Shown here in pieces: positions 3,079 to 39,805 of a stretch of 64,000 bases of DNA. Source of the DNA: Escherichia coli (GTDB lineage: Bacteria > Pseudomonadota > Gammaproteobacteria > Enterobacterales > Enterobacteriaceae); the NCBI RefSeq assembly GCF_003334355.1, contig NZ_QOWP01000008.1. One strand, 5' to 3'. Under the pieces are notes generated by a model. The model saw only the letters and a program-made list of their open reading frames with translations, did not search any database and had not been told where the DNA came from. The translations under genes and the position numbers were made by a program. Position 1 is the stretch's first letter, and each line of letters opens with the position of its first letter.

Positions 3079-11060
<7,982 letters not shown>

Positions 11061-11066
11061 AACATA

Positions 11067-11097
11067 AGGCCGGATGTATGAATTACGCTCCGGCCTG
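11067..11097. terminator. Hairpin between convergent yieK and cbrB
   Basis: aggccgga ... tccggcct stem. Confidence 0.5.
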
Positions 11098-11136
11098 TTC
11101 TCCAACGGTTAATTACAAATAGATAAAGTATCCCGC

Positions 11137-11610
11137 TTAACTTAAAGAGTCTGTTTCAGGACATGAAATATCCAATCCGGGCAGACGGGTAATGATTTTG
11201 CTCATCACCACACCTGCCAGCAATGCAGGAATGATGCGGACAACGAGACTGTCACCAGAAAGAATGTTTTCAAACAACTCCGAGGAAGCCATGCCCTTAA
11301 TATGTACAATAACTGCACAATAGATCTCGGTGATAACGACGCCACCTATGCCACCAGCCAGACAACGATAATTTTTCTGTGACCCGATCTTTTCCGGCAG
11401 ACAGGCGACCATCACGCCGGTTAACAATGCAGGAATAGCTCCCGTAGTAATCGACAATAAGAGAAACAATGGAAGTACCTGTATTATTACCAAAAGAACC
11501 AGCGGTTCTTTTGCGAAGAATATGTAGAGGACAAGAAACAGAACACCAATTAACGGTCCTAAAACCGCAAAATAAAGTCCGTGATGTATTACCCGACGTG
11601 AAACAGACAT
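11137..11610 (-). CDS. cbrB: Inner membrane protein CbrB (YieI)
   Basis: 157-aa strongly hydrophobic ORF immediately downstream of yieH on the same strand. Confidence 0.8.
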   Translation of the reverse strand: MSVSRRVIHHGLYFAVLGPLIGVLFLVLYIFFAKEPLVLLVIIQVLPLFLLLSITTGAIPALLTGVMVACLPEKIGSQKNYRCLAGGIGGVVITEIYCAVIVHIKGMASSELFENILSGDSLVVRIIPALLAGVVMSKIITRLPGLDISCPETDSLS

Positions 11611-11676
11611 ATCAAACTCCCTTTACTTACCTTTGAGCGCCAATTTAAGCGGGGTAAGTGAAGGGAGTGTGAAGAA

Positions 11677-12342
11677 CTATGCCGTAATATCCCAACCACG
11701 CGCTTTCCACAGTTCCGGTAACTGCGAAAGATGGGTAAAGGTGGTGACTTTCGGGTGAACGATCGGCTTATTGTGCGGGTCAGCGCAGAAGTAAAACACT
11801 TCCATTCCGGCATCTATCCCTGATTGAGCGCCGGCGCTGGAGTCATCGACCAGAATGCAGTTTTCAACGTTCACATTCATCGCTTTTGCCGCATGGAACA
11901 TTAATGCCGGATCGGGCTTCCAACGCTGGATATCGTAGCCGCTGAACAGTTTTTCCGGGAAGTAGTGCAGCATGTTGAGCTTACCCAGCGAATGCTGCAT
12001 TTTGCTGACCGGACCGTTAGAGACGACGCACATCGGCACGTTAATGCTCGCCAGCAATTCGTTCGCGCCTGCGATGTCCGCAAGTTCGGTATCAAACAGA
12101 CGTGCTACTTCTGCGCGGTAAACGTGCTCGGCATCGGCCTGGACCATCGTCACGCCCTGTTCTTTACTGATGATGTCGATGATTTCGTAGAGTTTTACGC
12201 CTTTAAAACGGGTAAAAATCTCCTCCAGGTCAACGTTAATGCCAAATTCCCTGAACATCGTGACATAGGCGCGAGAGCAAATGACCTCGCTATCGACCAG
12301 CGTACCGTCGCAGTCGAAAAATACCGCTTCTATCTGGGACAT
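11677..12342 (-). CDS. yieH: HAD-superfamily sugar-phosphate phosphatase YieH
   Basis: 221 aa; HAD motif I FFDCDGTLVDSE. Confidence 0.92.
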   Translation of the reverse strand: MSQIEAVFFDCDGTLVDSEVICSRAYVTMFREFGINVDLEEIFTRFKGVKLYEIIDIISKEQGVTMVQADAEHVYRAEVARLFDTELADIAGANELLASINVPMCVVSNGPVSKMQHSLGKLNMLHYFPEKLFSGYDIQRWKPDPALMFHAAKAMNVNVENCILVDDSSAGAQSGIDAGMEVFYFCADPHNKPIVHPKVTTFTHLSQLPELWKARGWDITA

Positions 12343-12508
12343 GTCTTTCCTTTATCGTTAGTTTAACGTTTTCGTCATGCCAATTCACATGACGCAATCG
12401 TTGCCGTATAAGCAAATACAATGAAAAAAAGTTATCTTCAGCCGTCCATATTGTCTCATTTTGGTATACGATAGCGACGGATTTTCCCTCCTTGTTCGGA
12501 AATAGATA

Positions 12509-20774: not shown

Positions 20775-20926
20775 AATCGTTCGGGGAGCAATATTAAATG
20801 CTTTTTTTTAAGATTATAAATTACGTAAGAATTTTAATGTTTAAAAAAAGGGTTGAGGAATAATAGGAGTGCTAACAATGAAGCGAAGCCGCATCTGACA
20901 GTCAGAATACGGCTTCGTAAGCGCGG

Positions 20927-22291
20927 TTACTTACCAATACAGAAGCTGGAGAAAATCCGCCCCAGCAGGTCGTCTGAAGTAAATTCCCCGGTGATTTCGC
21001 TTAAGTTCTGCTGTGCCAGACGCAACTCTTCCGCCAGCAGTTCACCTGCCCAGGCTCCCAACAGTTGCGCTTTGCCCTGTTGTAGATGTTCCGCTGCCTG
21101 TTCCAGCGCCTGTAGGTGGCGACGACGCGCCAGGAAGCCGCCTTCCATGTTGGTGTCAAAGCCCATGCTCTGTTTGAGATGGTTACGCAGCACCTCCACG
21201 CCTTCACCTGTCCTTGCCGAGAGACGAATTAACGCGTGACCGTTCACTTCACTCATTCCCAGCGTTTCGCCGGTGATATCGGCTTTATTGCGCACCACGG
21301 TGATCGGCAGTTTCGCTGGCAGACGGGCGATAAATTCCGGCCAGATCTCTGCCGGATCCACGGCGTCTGTTGTGGTGCCATCGACCATAAACAGCACGCG
21401 GTCGGCCTGTTCAATTTCCTGCCACGCGCGCTCGATACCAATACGTTCCACTTCGTCACTGGCTTCACGTAGCCCAGCGGTATCGATGATATGCAGCGGC
21501 ATTCCGTCAATGTGGATATGCTCACGCAGCACGTCACGTGTGGTTCCGGCGATATCAGTTACGATTGCTGCTTCACGGCCCGCCAGCGCGTTTAACAGGC
21601 TCGATTTACCGGCGTTAGGACGTCCGGCAATCACCACCTTCATCCCTTCGCGCAACAAACTACCCTGACGTGCTTCAGCACGCACTGCATCGAGATCGGC
21701 AATCACGTCATTAAGCTGGGCTTCAATTTTGCCGTCGGAGAGGAAATCGATCTCTTCATCAGGGAAATCAATTGCCGCTTCGACGTAAATGCGCAAGTGG
21801 GTGAGGGCTTCTACCAGATGATTAACCCGTGCGGAGAATGCGCCTTGCAGCGAGTTAAGTGCCGAACGGGCCGCCTGTTCCGAACTGGCGTCGATAAGAT
21901 CGGCAATCGCCTCGGCCTGGGCTAAGTCAAGTTTATCGTTAAGAAACGCGCGTTCGGAAAACTCACCAGGGCGAGCAATCCGCAGGCCGGGAATGGTCAG
22001 AATGCGTTTTAACAGCAGGTCGAGGATCACCGGACCGCCATGACCTTGCAGTTCCAGCACATCTTCGCCGGTGAACGAGTTCGGGCCAGGGAACCATAGC
22101 GCAATCCCCTGATCGAGCACGCTGCCGTCGGCGTCTTTAAACGGAAGATAATCGGCGTAGCGCGGCTTAGGCAGTTTACCCAGCACGGTTTCGGCAACTT
22201 CACGGGCTTTGAAGCCGGAGATGCGCAGGATGCCAACGCCGCCACGTCCCGGAGGCGTGGCCTGGGCTACGATAGTGTCATTATCGCTCAT
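20927..22291 (-). CDS. mnmE: tRNA modification GTPase MnmE (TrmE)
   Basis: 454 aa; G-domain motifs [10 protein letters not shown] and DTAG; C-terminal CIGK. Confidence 0.96.
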
Positions 22292-33680: not shown

Positions 33681-33817
33681 GATTAATCCTTTAAACGAGT
33701 AGCTAAGCCGTTGAAAGCATACTCTTCTTTCCCTCCTGTTTAGCGCCTGATATCCCTTTTCAGATTTCTGCCCGACGCATGTCATTTTTTTATGCATTGT
33801 TCTTTTTGTGATCTAAA

Positions 33818-33889
33818 TTGTAGTACAACAATATAAGTTTGTACTACATTACGCACACGGCAAACGCGAACGTCATCACGCTGGTACTA
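33818..33889. promoter_or_regulatory. Putative DgoR operator palindromes in the dgo promoter
   Basis: Repeated TGTA-N-TACA palindromes: tgtagtaca, tgtactaca, and a gtactac half-site upstream of dgoR. Confidence 0.55.
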
Positions 33890-33957
33890 CAAAGTTGCCG
33901 CGTTATGCATCGATCGGGGTAAAGTAGAGAAGAACATACAGAGCACAAGGACTCTCC

Positions 33958-34647
33958 ATGACTCTCAATAAAACCGATCGCATTGTCATTACGCTGGGTA
34001 AACAGATCGTTCACGGCAAATACGTACCTGGCTCGCCACTTCCGGCTGAGGCGGAGCTCTGTGAAGAGTTTGCAACCTCGCGCAACATCATCCGTGAGGT
34101 GTTCCGTTCGTTGATGGCGAAACGGCTGATTGAAATGAAACGTTATCGCGGCGCGTTTGTGGCACCGCGTAACCAGTGGAATTACCTCGACACTGACGTA
34201 CTGCAATGGGTGCTGGAAAACGACTACGACCCACGGCTTATCAGTGCCATGAGCGAAGTGCGAAATCTGGTGGAACCGGCGATTGCCCGTTGGGCAGCAG
34301 AGCGCGCGACCTCCAGCGATCTGGCGCAGATTGAATCGGCGCTGAACGAGATGATTGCCAACAATCAGGACCGCGAAGCGTTTAACGAAGCGGATATTCG
34401 CTACCACGAGGCGGTGCTGCAGTCGGTGCATAACCCGGTGTTACAGCAACTTAGCATTGCGATCAGTTCGCTGCAGCGGGCGGTTTTTGAACGAACCTGG
34501 ATGGGCGATGAGGCCAACATGCCGCAAACGCTCCAGGAACATAAGGCGCTGTTCGATGCGATACGGCATCAGGACGGCGATGCGGCAGAGCAGGCGGCGC
34601 TTACCATGATCGCCAGCTCGACACGAAGGTTAAAGGAAATCACATGA
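33958..34647 (+). CDS. dgoR: Galactonate operon repressor DgoR (GntR/FadR family)
   Basis: 229 aa; N-terminal winged HTH; synteny with dgoKADT. Confidence 0.93.
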   Translation: MTLNKTDRIVITLGKQIVHGKYVPGSPLPAEAELCEEFATSRNIIREVFRSLMAKRLIEMKRYRGAFVAPRNQWNYLDTDVLQWVLENDYDPRLISAMSEVRNLVEPAIARWAAERATSSDLAQIESALNEMIANNQDREAFNEADIRYHEAVLQSVHNPVLQQLSIAISSLQRAVFERTWMGDEANMPQTLQEHKALFDAIRHQDGDAAEQAALTMIASSTRRLKEIT

Positions 34648-35522
34648 CAGCTCGCTACATCGCAATTGACTGGGGATCGACCAATCTGCGCGCCTGGCTT
34701 TATCAGGGCGACCACTGCCTGGAGAGCAGGCAATCAGAAGCAGGCGTCACGCGCCTGAACGGAAAATCTCCGGCTGCGGTGTTAGCAGAAGTCACGACCG
34801 ACTGGCGTGAAGAAAATACGCCAGTGGTGATGGCAGGAATGGTCGGCAGCAATGTCGGCTGGAAAGTTGCTCCGTATTTATCTGTTCCTGCCCGTTTTTC
34901 GTCTATTGGCGAACAATTAACGTCTGTTGGCGACAATATCTGGATTATTCCCGGATTATGCGTCTCTCATGACGATAACCACAATGTGATGCGCGGCGAA
35001 GAAACACAATTGATCGGCGCGCGAGCTCTGGCTCCTTCCTCTCTTTATGTTATGCCCGGTACGCATTGCAAATGGGTGCAGGCCGATAGCCAGCAAATCA
35101 ACGATTTTCGCACCGTGATGACCGGTGAATTACATCATTTACTGTTAAATCACTCATTGATTGGCGCAGGTTTGCCGCCGCAGGAAAACTCTGCCGATGC
35201 CTTCGCGGCTGGCCTTGAGCGCGGCCTTAATGCGCCCGCCATATTGCCGCAGCTTTTTGAAGTTCGCGCCTCGCATGTGCTGGGAACACTTCCCCGCGAA
35301 CAGGTCAGCGAATTTCTCTCTGGTTTGTTGATTGGCGCAGAGGTTGCCAGTATGCGCGACTATGTGACCCATCAACACGCCATCACCCTTGTCGCCGGAA
35401 CATCGCTGACCGCGCGCTACCAGCAAGCCTTTCAGGCGATGGGTTGCGACGTGACGGCGGTGGCGGGCGACACGGCATTTCAGGCTGGTATAAGGAGCAT
35501 CGCACATGCAGTGGCAAACTAA
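34644..35522 (+). CDS. dgoK: 2-dehydro-3-deoxygalactonokinase DgoK
   Basis: 292 aa; start overlaps the dgoR stop. Confidence 0.93.
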   Translation: MTARYIAIDWGSTNLRAWLYQGDHCLESRQSEAGVTRLNGKSPAAVLAEVTTDWREENTPVVMAGMVGSNVGWKVAPYLSVPARFSSIGEQLTSVGDNIWIIPGLCVSHDDNHNVMRGEETQLIGARALAPSSLYVMPGTHCKWVQADSQQINDFRTVMTGELHHLLLNHSLIGAGLPPQENSADAFAAGLERGLNAPAILPQLFEVRASHVLGTLPREQVSEFLSGLLIGAEVASMRDYVTHQHAITLVAGTSLTARYQQAFQAMGCDVTAVAGDTAFQAGIRSIAHAVAN

Positions 35523-36123
35523 ACTCCCGCTGATCGCCATTTTGCGCGGCATTAAGCCCGACGAGGCGCTGGCGCATGTTGGCGCGGTGATTGACGCCGG
35601 GTTCGACGCGGTTGAAATCCCGCTGAATTCCCCACAATGGGAGCAAAGCATTCCCGCCATCGTTGATGCGTATGGCGACAAGGCGTTGATTGGCGCAGGT
35701 ACGGTACTGAAACCTGAACAGGTCGATGCGCTCGCCAGGATGGGCTGTCAGCTCATCGTTACGCCCAATATCCATAGTGAAGTGATCCGCCGTGCGGTGG
35801 GCTACGGCATGACCGTCTGCCCCGGCTGCGCGACGGCGACCGAAGCCTTTACCGCGCTCGAAGCGGGCGCGCAGGCGCTGAAAATATTTCCGTCATCGGC
35901 TTTTGGTCCGCAATACATCAAAGCGTTAAAAGCGGTATTGCCATCGGACATCGCAGTCTTTGCCGTTGGCGGCGTGACGCCAGAAAACCTGGCGCAGTGG
36001 ATAGACGCAGGTTGTGCTGGGGCGGGCTTAGGCAGCGATCTCTATCGCGCCGGGCAGTCCGTAGAACGCACCGCGCAGCAGGCAGCAGCATTTGTTAAGG
36101 CGTATCGAGAGGCAGTGCAATGA
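35506..36123 (+). CDS. dgoA: 2-dehydro-3-deoxy-6-phosphogalactonate aldolase DgoA
   Basis: 205 aa, KDPG-aldolase family. Confidence 0.93.
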
Positions 36124-37268
36124 AAATCACCAAAATTACCACGTATCGTTTACCTCCCCGCTGGATGTTCCTGAAAATTGAAACCGATGAAGGCGTGGTC
36201 GGTTGGGGCGAGCCCGTGATCGAAGGCCGCGCCCGTACGGTGGAAGCGGCAGTTCACGAGCTGGGTGACTATTTGATTGGTCAGGATCCATCGCGCATCA
36301 ATGACTTATGGCAAGTGATGTATCGCGCCGGATTCTATCGCGGCGGTCCGATCCTGATGAGCGCCATCGCCGGGATTGACCAGGCGTTATGGGATATCAA
36401 AGGTAAAGTGCTGAATGCGCCGGTCTGGCAACTGATGGGCGGCCTGGTTCGCGACAAAATTAAAGCCTACAGTTGGGTTGGCGGCGATCGTCCGGCGGAT
36501 GTTATCGACGGCATTAAAACGCTACGCGAAATCGGCTTCGATACCTTCAAACTGAACGGTTGTGAAGAACTGGGGCTAATTGATAACTCCCGCGCGGTAG
36601 ATGCGGCGGTTAACACCGTGGCACAAATTCGTGAAGCTTTTGGCAATCAGATTGAGTTTGGTCTTGATTTCCACGGTCGCGTCAGCGCGCCGATGGCGAA
36701 AGTGCTGATTAAAGAACTGGAGCCGTATCGCCCGCTGTTTATTGAGGAGCCGGTGCTGGCGGAACAAGCCGAATACTACCCGAAACTGGCGGCACAAACG
36801 CATATTCCACTGGCGGCGGGTGAACGCATGTTCTCACGCTTCGATTTTAAACGCGTGCTGGAGGCAGGCGGTATTTCGATTCTGCAACCGGATCTCTCCC
36901 ACGCGGGCGGTATTACCGAATGCTACAAAATCGCCGGAATGGCAGAAGCCTATGACGTGACCCTTGCGCCGCACTGTCCGCTCGGACCGATTGCACTGGC
37001 GGCTTGCCTGCATATCGACTTTGTTTCCTATAACGCCGTACTTCAGGAACAAAGTATGGGAATTCATTACAACAAAGGCGCGGAGTTACTCGACTTTGTG
37101 AAAAACAAAGAAGACTTCAGCATGGTCGGCGGCTTCTTTAAACCGTTAACGAAACCGGGCTTAGGCGTGGAAATCGACGAAGCTAAAGTGATTGAGTTCA
37201 GTAAAAATGCCCCGGACTGGCGTAATCCGCTCTGGCGTCATGAAGATAACAGCGTAGCAGAGTGGTAA
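36120..37268 (+). CDS. dgoD: D-galactonate dehydratase DgoD (enolase superfamily)
   Basis: 382 aa from [25 protein letters not shown]. Confidence 0.95.
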
Positions 37269-37387
37269 TTCCTGCCACGTAAGCCCCTCATCGGGCACTA
37301 AAACAGCAATACAAAAATATAACCCTCTGTAAATTACAGGGCATGGTGAGCGGCTTCGCTATGCCCAAAATCTGGAGAAAGCTCGCT

Positions 37388-38680
37388 ATGGATATTCCCG
37401 TTAATGCAGCAAAGCCGGGGCGTCGGCGTTATCTGACGCTGGTGATGATCTTTATTACGGTAGTCATTTGTTATGTCGACCGCGCCAACCTGGCCGTGGC
37501 TTCCGCCCATATTCAGGAAGAGTTCGGTATTACCAAAGCGCAAATGGGCTATGTATTTTCGGTCTTCGCCTGGCTTTATACGCTATGTCAGATCCCCGGC
37601 GGTTGGTTTTTAGATCGCGTAGGTTCTCGCGTGACTTATTTTATTGCGATATTTGGCTGGTCAGTGGCGACTTTATTCCAGGGCTTTGCCTCGGGATTAA
37701 TGTCATTAATTGGTCTGCGCGCGATAACCGGTATTTTCGAAGCGCCCGCTTTCCCGACCAATAACCGGATGGTGACCAGCTGGTTCCCGGAACATGAACG
37801 CGCTTCTGCCGTTGGTTTTTATACGTCTGGTCAGTTTGTCGGTCTGGCGTTTCTGACTCCGCTGCTGATCTGGATTCAGGAGATGTTGAGCTGGCACTGG
37901 GTGTTCATTGTCACTGGTGGTATCGGCATTATCTGGTCGCTGATTTGGTTTAAGGTTTATCAGCCGCCGCGCCTGACCAAAGGTATCAGCAAAGCTGAAC
38001 TGGATTACATTCGTGATGGCGGCGGTCTGGTGGATGGTGATGCGCCGGTGAAGAAAGAGGCGCGTCAGCCGTTAACAGCCAAAGACTGGAAACTGGTGTT
38101 CCATCGGAAACTGATCGGCGTCTATCTTGGGCAATTTGCGGTGGCTTCTACACTGTGGTTTTTCTTAACCTGGTTCCCGAACTATTTAACCCAGGAAAAA
38201 GGAATCACGGCGCTGAAAGCAGGCTTTATGACCACGGTGCCATTCCTCGCGGCGTTTGTCGGCGTCCTGCTCTCTGGCTGGGTCGCGGATCTGCTGGTAC
38301 GTAAGGGCTTTTCACTGGGCTTTGCGCGTAAAACGCCGATTATCTGCGGCTTGCTGATCTCCACCTGCATTATGGGCGCTAACTACACTAACGATCCGAT
38401 GATGATTATGTGCCTGATGGCGCTGGCATTCTTCGGCAACGGTTTTGCTTCGATTACCTGGTCGCTGGTCTCTTCTCTGGCACCGATGCGCCTGATTGGT
38501 TTAACCGGTGGCGTGTTTAACTTCGCCGGTGGTCTGGGCGGCATCACCGTTCCGCTGGTGGTGGGGTACCTGGCGCAGGGTTACGGTTTCGCACCTGCAC
38601 TGGTTTATATCTCCGCCGTCGCGTTGATTGGCGCGCTCTCTTACATCCTGCTGGTGGGCGATGTGAAGCGCGTTGGCTAA
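37388..38680 (+). CDS. dgoT: D-galactonate:H+ symporter DgoT (MFS)
   Basis: 430 aa from [22 protein letters not shown]; the track ORF starts 15 codons upstream. Confidence 0.93.
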
Positions 38681-39741: not shown

Positions 39742-39805
39742 CTTTTCACTCACATTCATCACGATGGCAAAAGACTATTGTCTGAAAGTGAAGTCCTTGT
39801 GAAGT

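Follow-up and report, generated by a model that had tools for sequence, protein, structure and literature searches.

The window, by which we mean the whole 64,000-nucleotide stretch of Escherichia coli DNA that was analysed, carries the bgl cluster at the phoU-yieH locus (the genes checked were bglH, yieL, and yieK). yieK is the final gene of the bgl-yieL-yieK cluster, and convergent with it lies an intact cbrB gene that adjoins yieH, as judged by the list of open reading frames and by NCBIfam. The features around the junction are the following.

7517-9133, bglH, upstream of yieK
9127-10329, yieL, upstream of yieK
10344-11060, plus strand, yieK (bglK), 238 aa, glucosamine-6-phosphate deaminase family (NCBIfam NF009022, 436.7 bits, E=2e-131)
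11061-11136, no strand, the spacer under study, 76 bp separating the stop codons of the convergent genes yieK and cbrB
11067-11096, no strand, stem-loop AGGCCGGATG...CTCCGGCCT, GC-rich and conserved, 12 pairs with one bulge
11103-11120, no strand, 18-bp filler CAACGGTTAATTACAAAT, the sole sequence unique to the cbrC-less allele
11137-11610, minus strand, cbrB (yieI), an intact 157-aa inner-membrane protein (NCBIfam NF007334, 254.9 bits, E=3.5e-76)
11658-11673, minus strand, cre tag TTCAC-N6-TTCAC (CreB recognition motif), a regular-expression match in the yieH-cbrB intergenic region
11677-12342, minus strand, yieH, beyond cbrB

A preliminary description of this DNA stated that cbrC is missing between cbrB and yieK, and the coordinates that it gave for the two stop codons, 76 bp apart, are exact. 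The gene order of K-12 that it gave is also correct, with yieK followed by cbrC, cbrB, and yieH on the opposite strand and with a cbrC of 195 codons expected at this point. The call of yieK is supported by the RefSeq annotation of strain 720632, which is identical to the window here, and no open reading frame was found in the spacer (11061-11136) in the list of open reading frames. The tblastn search that had been proposed, with the 195-aa K-12-type CbrC against all six frames of the whole 64-kb window, did not find a CbrC homologue, the best match (25 bits, E=0.07) being noise, so cbrC has not been relocated elsewhere in the window, which nowhere encodes a PF03691 (UPF0167) homologue. At the site itself, blastn with the cbrC segment matches the two flanks only, revealing neither an IS element nor a cbrC fragment, and the statement that no recognisable remnant persists therefore stands. 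An Rfam search of 10900-11700 at E<=1 returned no matches, and thus a structured RNA or sRNA was not found in the spacer.

We compared the junction in nine haplotypes, including the cbrC+ strains 33-6, K-12, YPE3, and FDAARGOS_1266. The blastn breakpoints and this comparison showed that cbrC+ strains have 633 bp where the window has 18 bp, and that the 633-bp segment consists of the 588-bp cbrC open reading frame with a 3' flank of 13 bp and a 5' leader of 32 bp. Homology to cbrC+ strains on the left spans the yieK stop codon and the stem-loop and ends at 11102 (…CCGGCCTGTTCTC), and homology on the right restarts at 11121 (AGATAAAGTATCCCGCTTAA…), at a distance of 16 bp from the stop codon of cbrB, so that the left breakpoint falls between 11102 and 11103 and the right breakpoint between 11120 and 11121. 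Several origins of the filler were considered and rejected. A diverged remnant of the cbrC 3' flank or 5' leader was suggested by the resemblance of ATTTAATGAC to ATTTAAATAAC, which holds by eye only, and local alignment of the filler to the segment ends and the outgroup flanks was no better than that of shuffled filler (p about 0.3-0.95). Copying from elsewhere in the window was discarded because no other site matches with <=3 mismatches, and slippage between CCTGTTCT and CCTGTCTG, a short direct repeat (CCTGTYYK) near both ends of the segment, predicts a product that mismatches the filler in both length and sequence.

The preliminary description stated that only a 76-bp spacer with a hairpin is left at the site. 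The hairpin is present, but it is not what remains of cbrC, being near-identical in cbrC+ genomes: in K-12, 33-6, YPE3, and FDAARGOS_1266 it lies at the same position and differs at 1-2 bases. It is therefore a pre-existing element between yieK and cbrBC rather than a scar of deletion, and in the window 41 bp separate the cbrB stop codon from this downstream element. The predicted fold has a free energy of -18.8 to -20 kcal/mol on the plus strand and about -23 kcal/mol on the minus strand, with a centroid at -18.8 kcal/mol and a z score of about -2.2 to -2.3 against shuffled sequences. Placed between the convergent yieK and cbrBC units, the stem-loop probably serves as a bidirectional terminator or represents a REP-like element. 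The bases that come after it are UUAUGUUUU on the minus strand and only UGUUCUCC on the plus strand, and the minus-strand tract is consistent with a putative role as the cbrB terminator; a simple scan for consensus terminators did not call the stem-loop on either strand. Its termini match the REP consensus termini GCCGGATG ... TCCGGCCT, and a regular-expression search of the window for both termini yielded a single further copy, at 1287-1316. A canonical REP has a longer interior, and the stem-loop has no match in Rfam; we treat the resemblance as no more than a lead.

To score the junction in other strains, we searched 5,426 complete E. coli genomes with a 201-bp query, too short to bridge the cbrC insertion. 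The junction is uninterrupted in 731 of these genomes (~13%, about 1 in 7), among them CFT073, E2348/69, and NC101. About 125 of the 731 have the window-type junction, 54 of them at >=99% identity. cbrC itself was found in about 3,550 of the 5,426 genomes, and the whole bgl-cbrB block, the loss of which was scored with a 7.7-kb query, is absent from about 1,190 further genomes (~22%), O157:H7 included, in which matches start only at yieH. The absence had been put down to strain-level variation or a clean deletion, and this is borne out, most complete genomes having the 633 bp with cbrC and the window and 730 others having the 18-bp filler. The preliminary description would have taken an identical junction in reference genomes as a sign that the gene order it gave was wrong; the junction does occur in CFT073 and E2348/69, but the K-12 order stands, and what the shared junction shows is that the polymorphism is common and documented.

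The absence of cbrC is indeed an ordinary, common, and already published polymorphism of gene content. Sankar, Neelakanta, Sangal, Plum, Achtman, and Schnetz (Sankar et al. 2009, PLoS Genet 5:e1000405, PMC2646131) typed the bgl/Z locus in 174 strains. In their types Ia and Ib (K-12-like; phylogroups A, B1, and hybrids) yieI and yieJ, that is cbrB and cbrC, lie downstream of bgl, and in type II (CFT073-like; B2, the ST73/ST95/ST12 complexes) only yieI is present; in type III Z5211-5214 replaces bgl, in type IV bgl and the Z locus are both missing, and in type V (E. albertii) yieJ adjoins phoU. Table S1 of that paper lists seven type Ib ΔyieJ strains (ECOR4, ECOR31, ECOR58, ECOR69, V9343, U2183, and E10086), all of A, B1, or A/B1 hybrid background, and we had therefore to abandon the idea that a non-B2 ΔcbrC strain is new with respect to the 2009 work. 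These strains and the window are alike in having the bgl operon, yieL, yieK, and yieI, in the clean absence of yieJ without an IS, and in their A/B1-type background, and from structure and background, not base by base, we infer that the window carries the type Ib ΔyieJ allele. Type II shares with the window the order yieK-stem-loop-cbrB, the same breakpoints, and a homologous 18-bp filler; it differs in its flanks, which are 3-6% diverged, and at 3 of the 18 filler positions. The K-12 gene order is thus not universal at the cbrC locus, and the cbrC-less junction is a handy typing marker for the bgl/Z locus.

cbrC is also recurrently struck by mobile elements. ISEc22 (IS66 family) splits the gene in EC-129 (L005:6429-9479) and related genomes, strain 3359 (H71) has an IS1 insertion in the gene, and EC2641 (L006:4288-5151) has an IS1-bounded deletion that removes bgl through mid-cbrB. 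A genome (H28) with a match ending exactly at the left breakpoint was considered as a third allele but turned out to be a cbrC+ genome with ISEc22 in cbrC. Many yieJ::IS alleles are likewise recorded in Table S1 of Sankar et al. (yieJ::IS629, ::ISEc8, ::IS1; Δ(yieJ-yieI)::IS629; PMC2646131). Such IS-disrupted alleles similarly inactivate cbrC in natural isolates, but they leave an IS or partial cbrC fragments behind, neither of which is present in the window allele. Genes of the bgl cluster are pseudogenised in several strains, namely yieK in E2348/69 (L003:1145-1867), bglH and yieL in EC-129 (L005:2819-5630), and yieL in ECL27977 (L007:1-830); yieK and bglH have an internal stop and yieL has a frameshift, in line with the erosion already published for this cryptic locus.

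Six cbrC-less haplotypes (the window, 720632, ETEC-2264, ECL27977, CFT073, and E2348/69) agree exactly in their left breakpoint, and all have a filler of 18 bp. In 720632, ETEC-2264, and ECL27977 the filler is that of the window, and in the B2 strains CFT073 and E2348/69 it is CAACATTTAATGACAAAT, identical to the window's at 15 of 18 positions. Since the breakpoints are the same and the non-templated filler is homologous, these haplotypes carry one allele by descent. The flanking sequences follow a different pattern. Only 4 SNPs across 700 bp of yieK and 3 across 500 bp of cbrB separate the window from the cbrC+ strain 33-6; against the cbrC-less B2 strains there are 22-32 SNPs in the same stretches, and against K-12 there are 14-15 in yieK and cbrB. 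In the neighbouring core genes (~30 kb), identity to the window is 99.0% for both K-12 (phylogroup A) and W (B1), 98.0% for O157:H7 (E), and 96.6% for E2348/69 (B2). Both the flanking SNPs and the core identity are thus A/B1-like, placing the cbrC-less allele of the window in an A/B1-type strain. Flanking SNPs track genomic background, not cbrC state, and either recombination or long persistence has broken the association between the indel and its flanks. As a separate observation, the 3' end of yieK has a 12-bp deletion between 11056 and 11057 relative to K-12 and CFT073 (GAATTAGC[GCTCGGTTAAGC]TTAA), which shortens YieK from 240 to 238 aa (…ELALG* to …ELA*). This deletion is limited to the A/B1-type cbrC-less haplotypes (the window, 720632, ETEC-2264, and ECL27977) and is absent from cbrC+ strains and from the B2 cbrC-less strains, so that type II B2 strains keep the 240-aa end.

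The polarity of the change can be judged from relatives outside E. coli. The closest non-E. coli CbrC (79% identity) is encoded on a 2.4-Mb NCBI contig (GCA_026341455.1) with a YieH that clusters at >=90% with those of Enterobacter and Kluyvera, and hence from an Enterobacter/Kluyvera-like organism. The gene order there is yieH, cbrC, and convergent phoU, both the bgl genes and cbrB being absent. The leader of the outgroup cbrC runs into AAGATAAAGTATCCAGCTTAACTTTAAGAGTCTGTTTTCAGACAT, the very sequence (AAGATAAAGTATCC.GCTTAACTT) that adjoins the window junction on its right side and makes up the final 28 bp of cbrB in E. coli. In E. albertii, yieJ adjoins phoU, and YieJ is 89% identical to that of K-12 (PMC2646131). 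The presence of cbrC beside this flank therefore appears to be the older state, and a deletion is the best reading of the window allele; this one distant outgroup and the published E. albertii structure favour deletion over insertion. The outgroup is of interest in its own right, because it keeps sequence resembling the last ~28 bp of cbrB in spite of having no cbrB (L013:4840-5010). This remnant is followed by CAGACAT plus 8 bp and then by ATCAAACTCCCTT, which resembles the cbrB 5' leader, and it looks as if cbrB had been cleanly deleted between CAG(G)ACAT repeats; from this apparent loss, the locus seems liable to lose whole genes by clean deletion. Homologues of CbrC with 60-79% identity are also encoded in Klebsiella, Kosakonia, Superficieibacter, Franconibacter, Providencia, Xenorhabdus, and others, so that the 2009 statement that yieJ has no enterobacterial orthologues outside E. 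coli and Shigella (PMC2646131) is outdated.

We consider it highly likely that the allele arose in a single deletion event from an ancestor with yieK, the stem-loop, cbrC, and cbrB and was then kept or transferred. The opposite history, in which the bgl-yieI island had the cbrC-less junction from the start and K-12-like lineages gained cbrC by a later insertion, after which it spread by recombination, has some observations on its side. Most B2 strains, often considered early-branching, lack cbrC, the filler has no detectable homology to the cbrC segment, and cbrC has a low GC content (43.6%, against 51.6% for the window) and has been proposed to be of horizontal origin (PMC2646131). cbrC is, besides, slightly less diverged than its flanks between backgrounds: the B2-like and K-12-like cbrC segments differ at 12 of 633 positions and the flanks at about 3.5%, a difference that would also fit some horizontal spread of the cbrC+ state. 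Composition does not set cbrC apart, however, cbrB being equally low in GC (43.9%), and an insertion would have had to recreate exactly the ancestral contiguity seen in a distant outgroup that has cbrC at the same yieH-phoU locus, with its leader contiguous with the right flank of the window junction. In E. albertii, too, yieJ adjoins phoU. An ancestral absence of cbrC is accordingly improbable.

More improbable still is that cbrC was deleted independently and recurrently, in B2 and in A/B1 lineages, at a deletion-prone site. Other events at cbrC are certainly known (the ISEc22 and IS1 insertions, the IS1-bounded deletion, and the many yieJ::IS alleles of Table S1), and the cbrC-less allele is found in backgrounds about 3-6% diverged. 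All cbrC-less haplotypes nevertheless have in common the exact left breakpoint, the 18-bp length, and 15 of 18 filler bases, and independent events would not be expected to yield the same non-templated filler, which effectively refutes this explanation. That cbrC merely collapsed out of the assembly, or was lost through a sequencing error, has next to no probability: we counted nothing in favour of such an artefact, the identical junction (100% over 201 bp) is present in at least 49 independently sequenced complete genomes and a homologous junction in 731, and evidence from PCR and sequencing was published in 2009 (PMC2646131).

In the single deletion that we favour, one event would have removed 633 bp (the 13-bp 3' flank, the 588-bp cbrC open reading frame, and the 32-bp leader with its ribosome-binding site) and left 18 bp of filler, sparing the yieK/cbrC stem-loop and the cbrB stop codon. 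The allele would then have persisted, or been moved by homologous recombination, in B2 (CFT073-type) and A/B1-type strains. The window retains from the K-12 cbrB-cbrC (yieI-yieJ) pair the locus, cbrB, the upstream cre tag, and the downstream stem-loop, and it lacks the distal cbrC with its leader. The cre tag, a motif defined in work on CreBC that 10.1101/615310 cites, precedes the start codon of cbrB by 48 bp. cbrB, formerly the promoter-proximal gene of cbrB-cbrC, would thus remain intact behind the cre-tag promoter region and would read straight into the shared stem-loop. The window has one more perfect cre tag, TTCAC-N6-TTCAC, at 39788-39803 (minus strand), which coordinate transfer from K-12 places ~50-60 bp upstream of the start codon of cbrA, a further colicin-tolerance gene under CreBC control that the window contains.

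CbrC is described as a CreBC-dependent colicin E2 tolerance protein that is co-induced with cbrB (Cariss et al. 2010, J Bacteriol 192:3329, as relayed in PMC3599342 and 10.1101/615310). The expected effect of the deletion would be loss of the CbrC-dependent, CreBC-induced tolerance to colicin E2, with CreBC control of cbrB unaffected. Strains with the cbrC-less allele would, by the same reasoning, have no CbrC tolerance pathway and would keep a CreBC-regulated cbrB. CreBC-dependent colicin E2 tolerance, as defined in K-12, should not be assumed for roughly one third of strains. The coexistence of one old ΔcbrC allele with cbrC+ in at least two deeply separated backgrounds, with adjacent SNPs that fit the local background in each, might point to balancing selection, although we regard this as unlikely. 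The coexisting pairs are, in B2, ST73/95/12 against cbrC+ B2-like strains such as FDAARGOS_1266 and, in A/B1, the window against 33-6. Under selection of this kind, the four-gamete pattern would reflect a long-lived polymorphism in which a cost of CbrC is weighed against its benefit under colicin E2 attack, but recombination and drift account for the coexistence of the alleles equally well.

Further variation was observed in the neighbourhood of the junction. yieH is strongly dimorphic over a ~700-bp block (window ~11790-12480) that covers the 5' two-thirds of the gene and the yieH-adeP intergenic region; K-12, 33-6, and ETEC-2264 have one form, and the window, CFT073, and FDAARGOS_1266 have the other, with up to 32 mismatches per 100 bp between them. 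The YieH proteins of the two groups share 192 of 222 residues, the distance between the two alleles is almost that of either one to the Enterobacter/Kluyvera-like outgroup (77-79% identity in DNA), and the block is unlinked to cbrC state. Compared with the window, O157:H7 strain 2-6-2 is without the dgoRKADT galactonate operon between yidX and cbrA (window 33810-38575), and its tnaC and mnmE are separated by an inserted ShET2/EspL2 effector gene that is frameshifted (window 20775-20927).
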